Source of the DNA: Legionellales bacterium
GTDB taxonomy: Bacteria > Pseudomonadota > Gammaproteobacteria > Legionellales > Legionellaceae
NCBI GenBank assembly: GCA_020050595.1
Contig: JAGVKL010000024.1
Location: 2,299-66,298 of the forward strand
DNA: 64,000 bases
Reading direction: 5' to 3'
Every line of letters begins with the position of its first letter. Position 1 is the first letter of the stretch. Positions 3,996 through 46,550 of the stretch are shown piece by piece. Both the position numbers and the translations under genes were made by a program. The notes beneath the pieces were generated by a model that saw only the letters and a list, made by a program, of their open reading frames with translations, was not told the origin of the DNA and did no database searches.

Positions 3996-6049
3996 CAAGA
4001 AATATCCGCTACACCTTGCAATAGCTTTTGTAAACGTGCCAATAAGGACAAACGGTTTGTCTTAAGAGCCTTGTCCTCAACCATAATCATCACATGGTCA
4101 AAGAAAGCATTCACCTTTTCATTTAAGCTAGCTAATTGAGTTAAAATAGCACTGTAATCACCTGCGCTATAAAGTGGCGTAACTATTTTCTCTATCGTTT
4201 GCAGCCCTTCAAATAATGCTTTTTCAGCAGGCTCCGCTAGTAAACCCATTTCCACTTGGCTTAGCTCAGCTAAAGACACCTGTTGTAATAAATTACTAAC
4301 CCGCTTACAAGCTCCCGATAAACTTAAAGCTTCAGGCAGTGCAATAAAGGTTAAGAGTGCTTTTACCCGTTTATCCATATCATAAAATCTATCATCCTGC
4401 CGCGCACGAACGGCTTGTACTATTTCGGCCGGGATATCTTGGGCTTGATAATAAGATTGCAATCGCTCTAGGATAAAAGGCTTCAACTCCGCTATATCAT
4501 CATGCTTAGTTAGCACAGAGCCGTAAGCTTTCAATGCCTGATCAATCAACGCTGATAGACTTAAATCAGCTGGTGTTGTTACTAATAAACGAGCAATAGC
4601 TAACGCGTGCCGCCGAAGCTTAAATGGATCTTTTACCCCAGAGGGTTTTTGGCCGATAGCAAAAATACCCACCATGGTGTCTAGTCGGTCAGCTAAAGAT
4701 AAAGCAAGTCCTAATGGTGATTGAGGTAACTCATCTTTAGAGAAACGCGGCATATATTGTTCGTTCAGTGCTTCTGCTACGGCCTCTGACTCTCCATCAT
4801 GGCGCGCATAGTAATACCCCATTAAGCCTTGTAATTCTGGAAACTCACCCACCATGCCTGTCATTAAATCACATTTACTTAATTCGGCGGCACGGGCAGC
4901 ATTTTTTAATTCCAAATGAAGCGGCTTAGCAAGATAATCCATTAACTGCTTGATACGTGATGTTTTGTCTTGCAAACTTCCAAGTTTTGCCTGAAATACA
5001 ACCTGAGCGGTTCGATCGTAATATGCACTTAGCTTTTGTTTCTTATCTTGACGATAAAAAAATGCGGCATCACTCAAACGAGCACGCATCACTTTTTCAT
5101 TACCAGCGATCACGCGCTCTCTATCCAAGCTCACAATATTAGCTACGGTAATAAAATGCGGTACTAAATTACCCTTTTTATCGTTTAGCGCAAAACACTT
5201 TTGATGAGACTGCATGGCCGCGATTAAAACTTCAGGTGGCACCTCTAAAAATTCAGGCTCAAAATTAGCTAATAAAGCTTCTGGCCATTCAACGATCGAT
5301 GTCACTTCATCGAGTAATTCATCGGGCATAATCGCCTGATAACCGTGCTGGCTAGCCAACGCATTGACTTGTTCTACAATCATTTGCCGACGGGTAGCAA
5401 AATTAGCCGCTACAAAAGCATCGCTCAATAAAGACTCATAAATACGCGGTGTTGAAATTTCAATGCTTTTAGGATGATGAAATCGATGCCCTACACTATA
5501 CCGACCGGTATTGACGCCTAATACTTGACAGGGCACAACATCATCACCAAACAATAAAACCGCCCAATGCACCGGCCTAGCAAATTGCGCAGCACCATCT
5601 CCCCAACGCATAGGCTTTGGAATAGGTAAACCATCTAACGCTTCCGTGATCATCCGGGGTAATAAATTTGTGGTTTTTTCTAAAGGTGTTTGTGCCTCAT
5701 AGGCCCACCATTCACCTTTTTCAGTGGCTATTTTAGTGAGTTTATCAATGGAAACATCGCATGATTTTGCAAAACCTAGCAAGGGGGGTAAAGGCTTACC
5801 GGCTGCATCAACCGACGAAGCCACTGCAGGACCGCGTCTTGAAATTTTCTGAGCAGGCTGCTCCTCTTGTACATCGTAAATCAGGATAGCGAGTCGTCTA
5901 GGTGAGGCAAACCGATGAACTTCGCCATGTTGTATACTTGCTTTTGCCAATAAAGTAATGAAGTTATTCGCCAAAGCATCGACTAGGGGCCAAACTACAC
6001 CAGAAGGTAGTTCTTCTGTACCTAGTTCAAATAATAAATCATTGACCAT
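3977..6049 (-). CDS. glyS: Glycine--tRNA ligase beta subunit
   Basis: 690-aa ORF with the typical GlyS N-terminus (LLFELGTEELP). It lies immediately downstream of glyQ. Confidence 0.95.
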   Translation of the reverse strand: MVNDLLFELGTEELPSGVVWPLVDALANNFITLLAKASIQHGEVHRFASPRRLAILIYDVQEEQPAQKISRRGPAVASSVDAAGKPLPPLLGFAKSCDVSIDKLTKIATEKGEWWAYEAQTPLEKTTNLLPRMITEALDGLPIPKPMRWGDGAAQFARPVHWAVLLFGDDVVPCQVLGVNTGRYSVGHRFHHPKSIEISTPRIYESLLSDAFVAANFATRRQMIVEQVNALASQHGYQAIMPDELLDEVTSIVEWPEALLANFEPEFLEVPPEVLIAAMQSHQKCFALNDKKGNLVPHFITVANIVSLDRERVIAGNEKVMRARLSDAAFFYRQDKKQKLSAYYDRTAQVVFQAKLGSLQDKTSRIKQLMDYLAKPLHLELKNAARAAELSKCDLMTGMVGEFPELQGLMGYYYARHDGESEAVAEALNEQYMPRFSKDELPQSPLGLALSLADRLDTMVGIFAIGQKPSGVKDPFKLRRHALAIARLLVTTPADLSLSALIDQALKAYGSVLTKHDDIAELKPFILERLQSYYQAQDIPAEIVQAVRARQDDRFYDMDKRVKALLTFIALPEALSLSGACKRVSNLLQQVSLAELSQVEMGLLAEPAEKALFEGLQTIEKIVTPLYSAGDYSAILTQLASLNEKVNAFFDHVMIMVEDKALKTNRLSLLARLQKLLQGVADISCLTSIR

Positions 6050-6050
6050 C

Positions 6051-6956
6051 TTACATTCTCAAAGAAGGTTTAAGCATAGGAAAACCAAGCGCTTCACGAG
6101 CGTCATAATACGCTTTTGCAACAGCCATAGATAATTGTCGAACACGCAATATGTAGCGCTGCCGCTCGGTTACCGATATAGCATGACGAGCGTCTAATAA
6201 ATTAAATGCATGCGATGCCTTAATAACCATTTCATACGCAGGTAGAGGCAAGTGAAGATCAACTAGTTTTTGCGCTTGTGCTTCAAAATAATTAAATTGA
6301 TGAAATAATGCTTCCACATCAGCATGCTCAAAATTATACGCTGACATTTCTACTTCATTTTGATGAAAAACATCGCCATAAGTCACTATTCCATTGGCTG
6401 TTTTACTCCAAGGAAGTTTAAACATGTTATCAACATTTAAGATATACATGGCAAGACGTTCGAGCCCGTAAGTTAATTCACCAGTTACCGGCTTACAAGA
6501 TAAGCCGCCTACTTGCTGAAAATAAGTGAATTGCGAAATTTCCATACCGTTTTGCCAAACTTCCCACCCTAACCCCCAAGCACCTAACGTCGGCGATTCC
6601 CAATTGTCTTCCACAAAACGAATATCATCGACCAATGGGTCAATCCCTAAAGCGCTTAGTGAATCAAGGTATTTTTCTTGAATATCAATGGGTGAAGGCT
6701 TAAGCACGACTTGAAACTGATAATAATGCTGGCCGCGATTAGGATTTTCGCCATAACGCCCATCCGTAGGACGCCTAGAAGGCTGCACGTAGGCAGCTGA
6801 CCACGGCTCAGGACCTACGGCGCGTAAAAAAGTAGCAGGGTGAAATGTCCCAGCACCTACCTCCATATCCAAAGGCTGCAATAAGACACAACCTTGAGCT
6901 GCCCAAAATTGCTGAAGGGTTAGAATAATATCTTGAAAAGTGCTGGGTCGATTCAT
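6051..6956 (-). CDS. glyQ: Glycine--tRNA ligase alpha subunit
   Basis: Highly conserved GlyQ sequence ([31 protein letters not shown]). Confidence 0.95.
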
Positions 6957-6961
6957 TTTAA

Positions 6962-7765
6962 TTAGCTATTGGAAGCTTTCTTAATTAACTCTTGCAATAC
7001 ATCGACACTAGCAGCCCCTGGGATAAATGCAGGCTCACTCTTCGCATTAAACTGACCTGCAGGTGTTGACGCCACTACAAAAGCAGGAGTACCCATTAAA
7101 TGCATCTTTTCTGCTAATTCGCGGTTCGCTTGTAATTGATTAAGCACTTCCTGGCTTCCCATGTCTTGTTCAAATTTTTGCATGTTCAAACCAATGGATT
7201 TTGCAGTATCCATGATCACTTGGTTGTCTAGGCGTTTGTCAGCCTTAAATAAAGCGTCATGCATTTGTTGATATTTACCCTGCATGCCTGCTGCTAAAGC
7301 AGCTTTGGAAGCCGTTTCTGAGCTCTTGCCAAAAATAGGGAATTCTTTATAAACCACACGCAAATTACTATCTTTTTTAATCAGTTCACCGATCGTAGGT
7401 GCCATTTTTTTGCAGTGAATGCATTGATAATCGAAAAACTCTACTAAAGTCACTTTACCTTTAGGGTTACCGCTTACCGCTGTTTTACCGTCAAATAGCT
7501 GATTTGCGTTTTCCAAAATAGCTGCTTTAGCCTGCTGCTGCATGGTTTGTTGTTGTTTTTGCTGCAATGCTTGAGACGCTTCCACCAATACTTCTGGGTT
7601 ATTGACCAAATAGTCATGAACTACTTTTTCCACTTCCTTTTGCTGCTCAGGTGACATCGTATTAGCTGCCATAATGGCTGGCGATGTCATCGCCGTTGCT
7701 AATGCGCTTATTACTAATAAATTTGTTAATTTCACACCTTTCCCCTTATGAAATATTATAAACAT
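6962..7765 (-). CDS. Periplasmic DsbA-family thiol:disulfide oxidoreductase, Com1-like
   Basis: Signal peptide, Gln-rich linker, and thioredoxin CxxC site [12 protein letters not shown] as in the Coxiella Com1/DsbA-like family. The true start may be the GTG at 7735. Confidence 0.8.
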
Positions 7766-7820
7766 TACTTTTCGTCACCCGAACCCTAGCATCAGTAGCA
7801 GTTAAATTCAAGGGATATCT

Positions 7821-8048
7821 CGAACCACAACCGCAGGAGTCCGAACCACGACCGTCAGGGAGCGGAGAAGTCCCCCAATCCCCGAACCACGACCGCCAGA
7901 AGTCCGAACCACGACCACCAGAAGTCCGAACCGCGACCGTCAGGGAGCGGAGAAGTCCCCCCAATCCCCGAACCACGACCACCAGAAGTCCGAACCGCGA
8001 CCACCAGAAGTCCGAACCGCGACCGTCAGGGAGCGGAAAACTCCCCCC
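7821..8048 (+). repeat. Tandem array A of the CCGAACC-R-C-R-ACC core repeat (about 10 cores; 22-bp short units and ~42-bp long units)
   Basis: Short units read TCCGAACCACGACCACCAGAAG. Long units read CCGAACCGCGACCGTCAGGGAGCGGAGAAGTCCCCCCAATCC. They are arranged as a higher-order repeat (2 short + 1 long). Confidence 0.9.
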
Positions 8049-8079
8049 ATGTTTTGCAGGCCCTACCAAAGATAAGTGT

Positions 8080-18680: not shown

Positions 18681-19979
18681 TTACTCTCCGCCAATCGCTG
18701 CAATTTCACGCGCTGCAGCTAGCGCTGCAAGACGCGCTATCACTCCATAAGCGTAAAATCGATTGGACGAATCGCCTACTTTTAACTCTTCACAGGGCAT
18801 GTTACACGCCTTTGCAAATGCCAAAGGCTCAAAATGCATGCCTGGCGCATTGAGATTATCATCCGTACCTCTAGCTTGATGAACGCGATAAAAGCCCCCC
18901 ACTACAAATTGGCCTATCATATAGACCACAGGCTCAGCAACTGCCCCATTCGGCATGGTTTCAAAGCTGTAAACCCCCTCTTGAATCATCACTTTGGTGA
19001 CTTTTTGACTACCTTTGCTCGACGACATTTTTGTACGCTGCTTACGGTTAAGCTGTAATAATTGCGCTCCTTCGTGCACCATCATGACGCTCATCCCATA
19101 AGTGCCGTTATCCGCTTTGACAGCCACAAAGGGTTTTTCCTTAATGCCGTAATGTTCGTATTTTTGTTTAATAGCCGTTAATAAGCTATCCACTTCTTCG
19201 GCAATCACATCAACGCCTTTTTGCGCCATAAAATCCACGTTTTCTATGGCTCTAAACATCGGATTAATTAACCAAGCATCAATACCCACTAACGCAGCAA
19301 ACTCTTCTGCTACCTCATGAAAAAATTGGAAATGGCTGGATTTAAGGCGAGATGCCCAACCAAGCTTTGTCGTGGGGCGAATACGTTGCTCCACACCTTG
19401 TAAAATATCGGGCACACCGGTCGATAGGTCATTGTTTAGTAATAATAAACAAGGTTCAAAATTATCTAATTGAACCTTGGTACCTACGCGCTTTAAAGGC
19501 TCCACCACCACGACTTCACCTTGCTCTGTGATAAGCTCTGTAGGAGACGTAATTGCTTGATCTAAGCTACCAATACGAACAATAAAGCCGGCTTTAACGA
19601 AAATATCCCTTAAGACATTTAGGCTTTGTATATAAAATGGGTTACGAGTATGGCTTTCCGGCAGGATCAATATCTTTAAACAACTTGAAAAACTACCTCC
19701 CAGCGTTGATTGTGCCGCTTGAATACACAACGGCATAAACTCAGGATTTAAATTATTAAAACCCGCCGGGAATAAATTAGTATCCACTGGCGCTACTTTA
19801 AAGCCAGCATGGCGTAAATCAACTGAAGAAGTAATCGGCGCGGGAGTCGTTTGCCATTGCTTACGAAACCAGGCTTCAATCGTCGCAATTTTATTTAAAA
19901 TAACTTCTTCCACAGGAAAAAGCGGCCCAGAATGCGCTGTAGTTAAATTAGGAACAGGAAAATCTATTAATCGCATCAA
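18681..19979 (-). CDS. gshA: Glutamate--cysteine ligase, short non-E. coli type
   Basis: 432-aa ORF directly upstream of gshB. The sequence resembles the small proteobacterial GshA family (VDTNLFPAGFNN, VKADNGTYGM). Confidence 0.65.
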   Translation of the reverse strand: MMRLIDFPVPNLTTAHSGPLFPVEEVILNKIATIEAWFRKQWQTTPAPITSSVDLRHAGFKVAPVDTNLFPAGFNNLNPEFMPLCIQAAQSTLGGSFSSCLKILILPESHTRNPFYIQSLNVLRDIFVKAGFIVRIGSLDQAITSPTELITEQGEVVVVEPLKRVGTKVQLDNFEPCLLLLNNDLSTGVPDILQGVEQRIRPTTKLGWASRLKSSHFQFFHEVAEEFAALVGIDAWLINPMFRAIENVDFMAQKGVDVIAEEVDSLLTAIKQKYEHYGIKEKPFVAVKADNGTYGMSVMMVHEGAQLLQLNRKQRTKMSSSKGSQKVTKVMIQEGVYSFETMPNGAVAEPVVYMIGQFVVGGFYRVHQARGTDDNLNAPGMHFEPLAFAKACNMPCEELKVGDSSNRFYAYGVIARLAALAAAREIAAIGGE

Positions 19980-42754: not shown

Positions 42755-43207
42755 TTACCTTGTTATTGCTACTTGCCGAATGCGATCGAGATCGATCGCT
42801 GAAAGCGAGGGCTTTGCTAATAGTTCTAAACTTACACTTTCTAACGCCGTCTCGATTGCCCGACTAATTAATTGCCAATTACCTTGTACATGACAGACGT
42901 GTTGTAAAGAGCACTCATTGGGCGCTTTACTGCATTCGGTTAACCCACGATCTTCATCTAAAGCGTATATAATTTCCGCCACTGAAATCTCAGCAGCTGC
43001 TCGTTGTAAACGGTATCCGCCAGTCACGCCCCGAACAGAAGATAATAAACCTGCAGCTGTTAACCGTTTTAATAATTTACTCACGGTTGGTACGGTAAGG
43101 TGGGTATGTGAAGCAATATCTCTTGCATTGCAAAGCTTTTGCGAATGCTTTGCAAGATACACCATTACGACTGTTCCATAATCGGCCAATTTACTGATGC
43201 GGAGCAT
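42755..43207 (-). CDS. iscR: Rrf2-family regulator, IscR/SufR-like
   Basis: N-terminal wHTH (MLRISKLADYG...) and a Cys triad (C...CSLQHVC) typical of Fe-S-sensing Rrf2 proteins. It is the first gene of the suf operon. Confidence 0.85.
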   Translation of the reverse strand: MLRISKLADYGTVVMVYLAKHSQKLCNARDIASHTHLTVPTVSKLLKRLTAAGLLSSVRGVTGGYRLQRAAAEISVAEIIYALDEDRGLTECSKAPNECSLQHVCHVQGNWQLISRAIETALESVSLELLAKPSLSAIDLDRIRQVAITR

Positions 43208-43367: not shown

Positions 43368-43507
43368 ATCCGAACCACAACCATCAGAAACCGGATCCGA
43401 ACCACAACCATCAGAAACCGGATCCAAACCGCGACCATCAGGAACCGGATCCGAACCACAACCATCAGGAACCGGATCCGAACCGCGACCGTCAGGGAGC
43501 GGAAAAG
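43368..43507 (+). repeat. Tandem array E of the core repeat (5 x 27 bp), ending in CCGAACCGCGACCGTCAGGGAGCGGAAAAG
   Basis: TCCGAACCACAACCATCAGAAACCGGA units start at 43369, 43396, 43423, 43450 and 43477. Confidence 0.9.
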
Positions 43508-43621: not shown

Positions 43622-44281
43622 ATGACAATACGATTTTTTATTATCTTTTTGGGCATTTTTTTAAGCCCCCTTACTTTTGCAGAGCCCCCAAATCTCTCTA
43701 TTGTTCTCCATGAATTAAAAATTTACCACGACTCAGGTGCTTATGCGCATGATTTAAACCGCGTTGTTCAAGATGCTCATCGTTATATTCTTAAAGAAGT
43801 AAGCATTAATAACCACCGCATAACCCCCAAAAAGCTTGCTATCGTGCTGGATATTGATGAAACAAGCCTCTCCAATTACCGCACATTTTCTGCACATCAG
43901 TTTGTAGAAACCAAACAACAAATTCATCAGGATATGCTGGCTGCCAATGCCCAGCCGATTATCCCCACCTTGCAATTATATAACGATGCCTACAAGCAAG
44001 ATGTTGCTGTCTTCTTTGTAACGGGTAGGCGGATTTCTGAAAAAAATGCCACCATTAAAAATCTAAAAAAAGCCGGCTATGAACATTGGACTGGTCTTTA
44101 TTTAAAGCCTGAAAATTACCATCAACCTTCCGTTATTCCCTTTAAATCCAGTGTAAGAAAAATGATTGCGAGCCAAGGTTACACAATTATTGCTTCAATT
44201 GGCGATCAATATAGCGATTTAAAAGGCGGTTATGCTGAAAAAACGTTTAAATTGCCTAACCCTTATTATTATATTCCCTAA
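43622..44281 (+). CDS. Secreted class B (HAD IIIB) acid phosphatase
   Basis: Signal peptide, DDDD-family motifs (VLDIDETSLSN, FFVTGR, GDQYSDL). Confidence 0.8.
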   Translation: MTIRFFIIFLGIFLSPLTFAEPPNLSIVLHELKIYHDSGAYAHDLNRVVQDAHRYILKEVSINNHRITPKKLAIVLDIDETSLSNYRTFSAHQFVETKQQIHQDMLAANAQPIIPTLQLYNDAYKQDVAVFFVTGRRISEKNATIKNLKKAGYEHWTGLYLKPENYHQPSVIPFKSSVRKMIASQGYTIIASIGDQYSDLKGGYAEKTFKLPNPYYYIP

Positions 44282-46150: not shown

Positions 46151-46550
46151 AGGTTCATTTATTAAACGGGTGCAACACTAGGCAACGTCCCTAAAGTTTC
46201 GCCAGGAGCGAAAAAGTAAGAAATTGAGGCAAAATACACGCTTGATAGAGGCGAATAGCAAGCTCTATTTAACGAAATCAAGCGTGTATTTTGACCCATT
46301 TATTGCTTTTGCAGCCCGGCGATAACTTTAGGGACGTTGCCTAGGTTGGGCCCTGAGAGATCGTCACTTTTTGTTAAACCATGTAGCCTGGTTGCTTGCA
46401 ACCAGGGACTTTGAGCATTGATGTAAGTTATGACATGCTTTCCTGGTTGCAAGCAACCAGGCTACTGTTTAAAAAGTGACAATCCATCAAGGCCCAACCT
46501 ACCGGGTTTTATTGAATAGAGGAGCGTTGCATCCGCTTAATAAATGAACC
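46151..46550. repeat. 400-bp intergenic region built entirely of nested inverted repeats (outer 27-bp arms, a 167-bp hairpin element, a 160-bp MITE)
   Basis: GGTTCATTTATTAAACGGGTGCAACAC (46151) pairs with GCGTTGCATCCGCTTAATAAATGAACC (46524). CTAGGCAACGTCCCTAAAGTT (46178) pairs with AACTTTAGGGACGTTGCCTAG (46324). TAGGTTGGGCC (46342) pairs with GGCCCAACCTA (46491), enclosing GTAGCCTGGTTGCTTGCAACCAGG and its complement. Confidence 0.85.

Follow-up and report, generated by a model that had tools for sequence, protein, structure and literature searches.

The 64-kb window analysed here (64,000 nucleotides; C29:2299-66298) comes from a Legionellaceae MAG of 1.72 Mb in 75 contigs with 41.8% G+C, hereafter G000, and contains five tandem arrays, A to E, interspersed with protein-coding genes (Table 1). 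Pfam supports the flanking genes as real, viz., those for DsbA-like, UvrD, alpha/beta-hydrolase, MlaA, IscR, and acid phosphatase proteins, and returns no match for the array-covering ORFs at 7746-8090 and 15632-15922. The positions at which a preliminary description had placed the five arrays hold by sequence and, except for array B, also by TRF, which finds A at 7821-8049 (periods 22 and 86), C at 11833-12014 (period 24), D at 15763-15905 (periods 35 and 24), and E at 43368-43503 (period 27). The higher-order structure described there for array A, with two short units of 22 bp and one of 42 bp, is likewise borne out, at 2.7 copies by count. A 1195-aa ankyrin-repeat gene (12146-15733) is flanked by arrays C and D, both in minus orientation, and its insertion into the locus may have been marked or mediated by the repeat arrays.

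Table 1. Arrays and associated features in the window (positions are those of the window; REP, full copy of the conserved 30-mer; REPtron, transposase gene between inward-facing copies of the repeat)
Feature	Position	Strand	Description
Array A	7821-8048	+	86-bp higher-order unit x2.7, consisting of two 22-bp truncated units (CCGAACCACGACCACCAGAAGT) and one 42-bp unit containing a full REP
Array A, full REPs	7841-7870, 7926-7955, 8012-8041
Array A, neighbours	6962-7765; 8080-10248	-; -	DsbA-like gene; uvrD
Array A, terminal cap REP	8012-8041	+	CCGA foot 8012-8015; stem 8017-8020 paired with 8033-8036
Array A, cap REP hairpin interior			Tandem G.A internal loop, inner CC/GG pair, GTCA loop
Array B	11480-11590	+	Left arm of decayed REPtron; full REPs 11502-11531 and 11561-11590, degenerate units in between
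Chimeric remnant between arrays B and C	11591-11821	+	ISAs1 fragment and transposase 3' remnant; match G000:C29:14013-14081
ISAs1-family transposase gene, 5' fragment	~11650-11775		Homologous to L023 and L037
Class 3 TnpA-Y1 gene, 3' remnant	~11772-11821		Reads ...GSTWYLWKE..., intact relatives GSTRYLWKE
Array C	11821-12055	-	Right arm of decayed REPtron; full REP 11822-11851
Array C, outward of REP			About eight 24-bp truncated units (CCGAACCGCGACCGTCAGGCCRCT), degenerating toward 12055
Array D	15763-15906	-	Full REPs 15763-15792 (3 mismatches) and 15798-15827, then 24-bp truncated units
Array D, neighbours	12146-15733; 16007-16840	+; +	Ankyrin-repeat gene; mlaA
Array E	43368-43507	+	Four diverged near-full 27-bp units, then full REP 43478-43507
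Array E, inward of REP			TTAACCAGCCATG..., a segment that in relatives separates the transposase 3' end from the right-hand REP
Array E, neighbours	42755-43207; 43622-44281	-; +	iscR; acid phosphatase gene

The same repeats recur across the genome. An 18-nt core searched with at most three mismatches gave 161 matches, as against one for the reversed control, which group into 70 strand-specific clusters; these amount to 52 loci spread over some 35 contigs, often close to contig ends. A degenerate 26-mer gave 105 matches, and none when its pattern was reversed. Because the core is spread over 52 loci, the family is dispersed and does not represent a local duplication, and the confinement to this region that the preliminary description had named as possible counter-evidence does not apply. 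Its statement that the arrays are strictly intergenic extends to the whole genome, with none of the 52 loci falling within a stop-to-stop frame that reaches 150 codons. Whole-genome TRF recovers about 40 arrays with periods of 11, 20-27, 34-55, and 78 bp, in which every unit begins with CCGAACC, is homologous to the full repeat over 11 to 30 nt, and then passes into a spacer specific to the array. Of the 30 arrays genome-wide that mix truncated and full units, 28 have the full unit in the 3'-most position, and the closure of the arrays on one side by a conserved 30-mer, first remarked in the window, is thus a general property. As read from the short-read MAG assembly, the copy number of the 20-bp unit ranges from 2.0 to 7.5 over seven loci and that of the 11-bp unit from 3.1 to 9.8 over five. 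The arrays sit on the outer side of a hairpin or palindrome, and in G000 several solo caps, among them the ones of arrays A and E, run inward into AACATGGCTNNTTAAC, which in the remnants of relatives is the segment between the gene's 3' end and the right-hand repeat. A further long array (C19:57454-57649), with an 11-12-bp unit TAAATRCCCGG(G) unrelated to the repeat, abuts the base of a 92-nt hairpin.

The arrays show no preference for convergent, tandem, or divergent intergenic regions relative to background and no orientation bias with respect to the GC-skew strand. No outward gradient of divergence was seen either, the outermost units averaging 1.91 mismatches and the innermost 1.81 (p=0.77) in a loose 12-mer search that was noisy. 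A loose search with the 11-mer head gave 479 matches for the reversed control vs 364 for the motif, and single matches from that search were therefore disregarded. The arrays account for many contig breaks and spurious ORFs of this MAG and would be candidate VNTR markers.

The conserved 30-mer CCGAACCGCGACCGTCAGGGAGCGGAAAAG has nine matches in the window (at most three mismatches), compared to none in 100 shuffles. The preliminary description saw no obvious hairpin in it; however, its minimum-free-energy DNA fold, .....((((..((....))..))))....., at -5.4 kcal/mol (z = -1.6, a weak value), is a short imperfect hairpin with the architecture CCGC-GA-CC-GTNA-GG-GA-GCGG, i.e., an outer CCGC/GCGG stem, a tandem G.A internal loop, a CC/GG pair, and a GTNA loop within which the variable position of the repeat falls. 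In a set of 120 distinct copies, 96 have G:C and 15 have A:T at pair 8:23, C:G has changed to T:G 22 times at pair 9:22, and the number of double changes was reached by none of 500 shuffles; in the copies beside a Bryobacteraceae homologue of the transposase gene (see below), pair 8:23 is C:G. Covariation thus supports the hairpin, the support lying with one base pair of a weak fold. The 30-mer is accordingly a REP-type element, with a 5' CnGA foot followed by a small imperfect hairpin; the foot reads CCGA or CAGA in the copies that bracket a gene in relatives and additionally CTGA among dispersed ones. Rfam gave no gathering-level match in the window and none on any array at E<=1, and a literature search for the letters of the repeat, in an incomplete library, returned no match.

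An intact ORF of 178 aa in a relative (G008:C46) has copies of the 30-mer on both sides, two on the plus strand and four on the minus strand, and matches the Pfam Y1_Tnp family (PF01797) at 31 bits (cut-off 23). Near-full-length homologues, with 68-79% identity over at least 146 residues, were found in 11 of 121 Legionellaceae genomes, which we count as intact, this number including one homologue with an in-frame stop and one cut by a contig end; further matches within the same 11 genomes are fragments only. Homologues are likewise on record for four cultured Legionella species, viz., L. pneumophila, L. waltersii, L. shakespearei, and L. bononiensis. An alignment of 29 homologues (consensus length 178 aa) displays the motifs N94-H-V-H97, W134-[TA], and Y155-V-[VI]-x-E-Q160, with H95, H97, W134, Y155, V156, and Q160 invariant and N94 and E159 nearly so. 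The signature tabulated for class 3 TnpA-Y1 proteins comprises NHVH, W[TA], and YV[VI][AENY]EQ at about position 155 in a protein of about 178 aa (Quentin et al., 2018; PMC6006769). Every tabulated motif is matched and, judged by these motifs, the gene of the relatives belongs to class 3 TnpA-Y1, with G000 itself retaining remnants only. An AlphaFold model (pLDDT 83) has as its top PDB fold match 4ER8, followed by the IS200, IS608, and ISDra2 transposases; 4ER8 is the structure of TnpA-REP, the transposase associated with the REPs of E. coli, in complex with a REP hairpin (PDB). A profile search of PDB sequences yielded only chance matches to SETD2, the relationship being reached by the fold search, and the NCBIfam model REP_Tyr_transpos (NF047646) scores the transposase at 24.1 bits against a cut-off of 80. 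As both the NCBIfam RAYT model and the sequence-only PDB search fall short, the protein does not belong to the classical (class 2) RAYTs.

Gene and repeat are associated, if imperfectly. Inward-facing copies of the repeat, reading CCGA[A/G]CC[G/A]CGACCGTNAGGGAG[C/T]GGA, bracket the gene in all ten related genomes with readable flanks. The preliminary description had set the arrays apart from classical REPs, but a hairpin behind a CnGA foot that brackets a Y1/HUH gene in each of these cases makes them REP-like. Across the 121 Legionellaceae genomes the repeat occurs in 34 and any match to the gene in 15, all within those 34, with none in the 87 genomes that lack the repeat; the 11 genomes with an intact gene carry 18-196 repeat copies each. 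The link is imperfect because seven genomes with at least ten repeats gave no match to the gene, among them one complete genome with 90 copies, and the gene is present without this exact repeat nearby at a Bryobacterales locus (L102) and some others. In the intact-gene genomes most copies form inverted doublets with a distance of 38-54 bp, and full-unit arrays in direct orientation stand beside the gene in two relatives (period 75 in G008, 48 in G133). Arrays of truncated units (period 11-27), by contrast, are absent from the 11 intact-gene genomes and among the 121 were found only in G000 (23 matches) and G005 (one match), the two repeat-rich genomes with remnants of the gene only; as they were seen in just two genomes, their tie to gene loss is anecdotal.

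The repeat is also found outside the family. Scanning one genome per prokaryotic species for an exact 27-mer core, for which we estimate about 0.004 chance matches, recovered Legionellaceae/Legionellales MAGs, Bryobacterales, Pirellulales, and unclassified Proteobacteria. In the Bryobacterales, the Pirellulales, and the other proteobacterial MAG the repeat is dispersed in 17-167 copies, with none for the reversed controls, and class 3 genes were found in two of these non-Legionellaceae genomes. A G+C-rich metagenome contig encodes a homologue with 55% identity; on its flanks stand the same repeat and, oppositely oriented, a second variant that is dimorphic. Hence, about 25 nt of the repeat are nearly invariant across three phyla, and the protein diverges to about 55% identity. 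This cross-phylum occurrence agrees with the published host range of class 3.

In G000, an 82% complete assembly, the gene is present as remnants only (C31:7368-7584 and between arrays B and C in the window); given this completeness, an intact gene could be unassembled. The motif GSTWYLWKE of the window remnant belongs to the C-terminal region of the transposase, encoded in the last ~50 bp before array C. The part of the window homologous to L023 opens with the 30-mer, at its first base or no more than one base before it, and extends into the 5' end of the ISAs1 fragment. Similar chimeric remnants occur on C31 of G000, in G002, and in G005, with a different deletion junction in each, and in another relative (G006) the 3' end of an ISAs1 element abuts an intact transposase gene immediately upstream of it. 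The junctions of the remnants and the arrangement in G006 indicate that ISAs1 entered the REPtron directly inward of its left repeat and that the locus decayed afterwards. Two further cases touch on this locus: in a related MAG (L023 3507-6496) the repeat-adjacent ISAs1 transposase gene is interrupted by a group II intron (RT ORF 4544-6091), and in G002 (L059 400-900) an IS66 fragment lies inside the decayed REPtron. The REPtron locus thus attracts nested insertions.

Among described systems the closest is that of the class 3 TnpA-Y1 genes, which were defined in 2018 by sequence only (Quentin, Siguier, Chandler, and Fichant; PMC6006769). In the part of that account devoted to them, these genes, hosted by Planctomycetes, Acidobacteria, and Proteobacteria, have on their flanks atypical secondary structures that carry a CnGA foot and are present in high copy number, up to about 600 in Solibacter usitatus (PMC6006769). 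The likeness to the system studied here extends to the 178-aa protein with NHVH, W[TA], and YV[VI]xEQ and a tyrosine at about 155, to several flanking structured repeats with a CnGA foot and high copy number (the repeat being compared by description), and to the Acidobacteria, Planctomycetes, and Proteobacteria as hosts. The family, which the preliminary description did not recognize as a described one, therefore fits the class 3 repeats as these are outlined (PMC6006769); that description had also named a match to a known IS or MITE terminus as possible counter-evidence, and the class 3 repeats are in effect such a match. The class 3 portion of the published account is short and names no Legionellaceae, and the decayed gene with head-to-tail truncated arrays seen here is absent from its description; no account of such arrays for this family was found in the literature searched.

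The classical REP/BIME/REPIN elements with their RAYT (TnpA-REP, class 2; Nunvar, 2010, PMC2817692; Bertels and Rainey, 2011, PMC3116915) share with this system a single-copy Y1 gene between inverted copies of a short, dispersed, extragenic hairpin repeat, and the best fold match, 4ER8, is common ground. They differ in that the present repeat has a CnGA foot and lacks the GT[AG]G head, its stem is short and imperfect (six Watson-Crick pairs plus the tandem G.A), and its sequence is almost invariant across phyla, whereas classical REPs vary between species. The inverted doublets of the relatives resemble REPINs, and G000 has 92-nt perfect hairpins (described below). In the incomplete library searched, no paper ties a RAYT or REPIN to Legionella. 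TIRtrons (TIRYT; Di Nocera et al., 2013; PMC3733652) combine tyrosine transposase genes with flanking inverted repeats that have no relation to GTAG REPs. An Acidobacteria group is among them, and their TIR families are moderately abundant and arranged in dimers or clusters, but the GGGGWSAS motif of some TIRs is absent from this repeat (PMC3733652). With minisatellites and VNTRs the arrays have in common the array-specific periods and a unit copy number that varies between paralogous loci; they depart from these in having units that go back to a single mobile repeat family and a full copy of that repeat as the closure of each array.

We consider it highly probable that the 30-mer is the cognate REP-type DNA of a class 3 TnpA-Y1 whose gene has decayed in this genome, and that the arrays are secondary products. 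The arrays consist of full and truncated copies of a small hairpin repeat and as such are selfish-DNA debris of a known kind, although their head-to-tail order is unusual. By analogy to IS200/IS605 TnpA and E. coli TnpA-REP, the class 3 enzyme would bind the hairpin on single-stranded DNA and, on the same analogy, would probably cut and rejoin the DNA beside the foot, with copies thereby spreading into intergenic DNA. In related genomes the gene between inward-facing copies constitutes the REPtron, and in G000 the gene has decayed, the remnant between arrays B and C having been disrupted by the ISAs1 insertion and the other lying on contig C31. The arrays are then tandemly duplicated outer (5') portions of the repeat together with a few adjacent bases, with one complete repeat at the end. 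Slippage during replication, or a switch of template, where the hairpin or palindrome has its base would mainly account for their origin and changes in length, as in minisatellites. That slippage beside the hairpin, and not transposition, produced the arrays is a conclusion we draw with moderate confidence from two genomes. It is favoured because identical short units differ in copy number between loci, because the arrays lie outside the hairpin or palindrome, with at least one array being without repeat sequence, and because truncated arrays are absent from all 11 genomes with an intact gene.

The most serious competitor to slippage holds that the truncated arrays are direct products of the transposase, wherein a nick at the CnGA foot, short copying, and rejoining would add a partial unit each time and leave footprints of abortive transposition. 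HUH enzymes nick site-specifically and can prime copying, and the common unit boundary (CCGAACC...) with a variable 11 to 30 nt of repeat homology, together with the 3' position of the full repeat in 28 of 30 mixed arrays, would suit such a process. We nevertheless regard it as unlikely, although it merits some weight: the truncated arrays were found only in the two repeat-rich genomes with mere remnants of the gene and in none of the 11 with an intact gene, the inter-unit spacers differ from the continuation of the full repeat, which argues against the units being simple re-copies from a nick, and the array unrelated to the repeat also abuts a palindrome. In a related vein, it is possible but doubtful that the truncated capped arrays record either a fixed-polarity action of the class 3 enzyme at the CnGA foot or a turnover of REPs into minisatellites after loss of the transposase; either record, if true, would make this genome the source of the first in vivo readout for class 3 enzymes. 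Selection by the host is another conceivable origin of the form of the arrays, which would then be iterons, promoter or terminator modules, or BIME-like supercoiling or gyrase sites. Their strictly intergenic location accords with this, as does a GAAC-N16-CGG spacing that presumably resembles, if loosely, that of ECF-type promoters. E. coli REPs and BIMEs, as summarized by Nunvar, 2010 (PMC2817692), bind IHF, gyrase, and Pol I, which also speaks for a host function. Such a function seems improbable, however, as the arrays show neither a preferred type of intergenic region nor an orientation bias against GC skew, their array-specific periods and truncation points speak against a fixed binding register, Rfam has no match, and the short arrays are missing in 119 of the 121 relatives.

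Still less probable is a reading in which an ISAs1-family IS has the 30-mer as its terminal inverted repeat and the arrays and short inverted pairs are its MITE-like derivatives. This idea draws on the position of the 30-mer 65-110 bp upstream of the ISAs1 transposase start in the window, L023, and L037, and on the coincidence of its first base with the start of the window-L023 homology. However, the 30-mer is absent from all 19 other ISAs1 loci retrieved from the family, being upstream of the gene only in L037, the closest relative of the window fragment; it brackets the Y1 gene where ISAs1 is absent; the abutting ISAs1 of G006 is an IS inserted inside a REPtron; and no ISAs1 gene is detectable in the G000 assembly. 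No complete ISAs1 copy that terminates in the 30-mer on both sides and has a target-site duplication was found. On the strength of the 19 loci and of G006 we rejected an ISAs1 terminus as the identity of the 30-mer. Finally, we give almost no credence to the arrays encoding repeat peptides of the PLPDGRGSD type or being degenerate CRISPRs. Open frames do cross some arrays (e.g., 7746-8090 on the minus strand, 114 aa), but many periods are not multiples of three (11, 20, 22, 23, 35, 38), no frame runs past an array, and the array ORFs lack Pfam matches, in keeping with the preliminary view that they are spurious. Equally, the spacers within an array are identical or absent, so the CRISPR reading fails for want of unique spacers, as had been said at the outset.

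With the class 3 assignment, these puzzling intergenic arrays are tied to a concrete pair, namely a class 3 TnpA-Y1 and a hairpin with a CnGA foot. What is new are the Legionellaceae members, the evidence for the hairpin, the constancy of the repeat across phyla, and the head-to-tail arrays of truncated units; the general understanding of REP-like elements is unchanged by the result.

The genome additionally harbors other repeats and transposase-like genes. A second REP system of the classical type is built on the GTAG-headed palindrome GTAGCCTGGTTGCTTGCAACCAGG, which in the window forms a BIME-like array of alternating orientation with period 191 and a doublet (31139-31673 and 46384-46464). 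Its canonical RAYT is intact on C20 (L010 1423-1980), scores 178 bits with NCBIfam REP_Tyr_transpos, and is flanked by the same palindrome. This RAYT was considered as a partner of the CnGA-foot repeat and rejected, being flanked by the different, GTAG-headed REP. An IS110/IS1111-type transposase (PF02371) was also looked for, and the genome has none. Contig C23 (L009 1432-2439) encodes a 335-aa RAYT-like protein whose C-terminal tail is weakly similar to the C-terminal DNA-binding domain of DnaA; no flanking repeat was seen at this gene. In the window, the divergent region between uvrD and the alpha/beta-hydrolase gene contains a palindromic MITE-like element of ~185 bp (10283-10465; CAACCTAGAAAAAGCAGTAGCCC ... 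GGGCTACTGTTTTTTCTAGGTTG), the Rfam hairpin matches of which are all sub-threshold. About 11 perfect 92-nt hairpins (-44 kcal/mol), each consisting of two inverted variant repeats, occur in G000, e.g., at C4:40557-40648, C23:39050-39141, C37:4888-4979 and 19817-19908, and C74:9162-9241, with another at C29:69099-69190 just past the end of the window. They are embedded in an element of ~300 bp with the outer inverted repeats CACGGTAAACGCATCTAAAT / ATTTAGATGCGTTTGCCCTG, and their 14-nt loop (ACGAGCAGCGAAAC) is found in both orientations (flip/flop).
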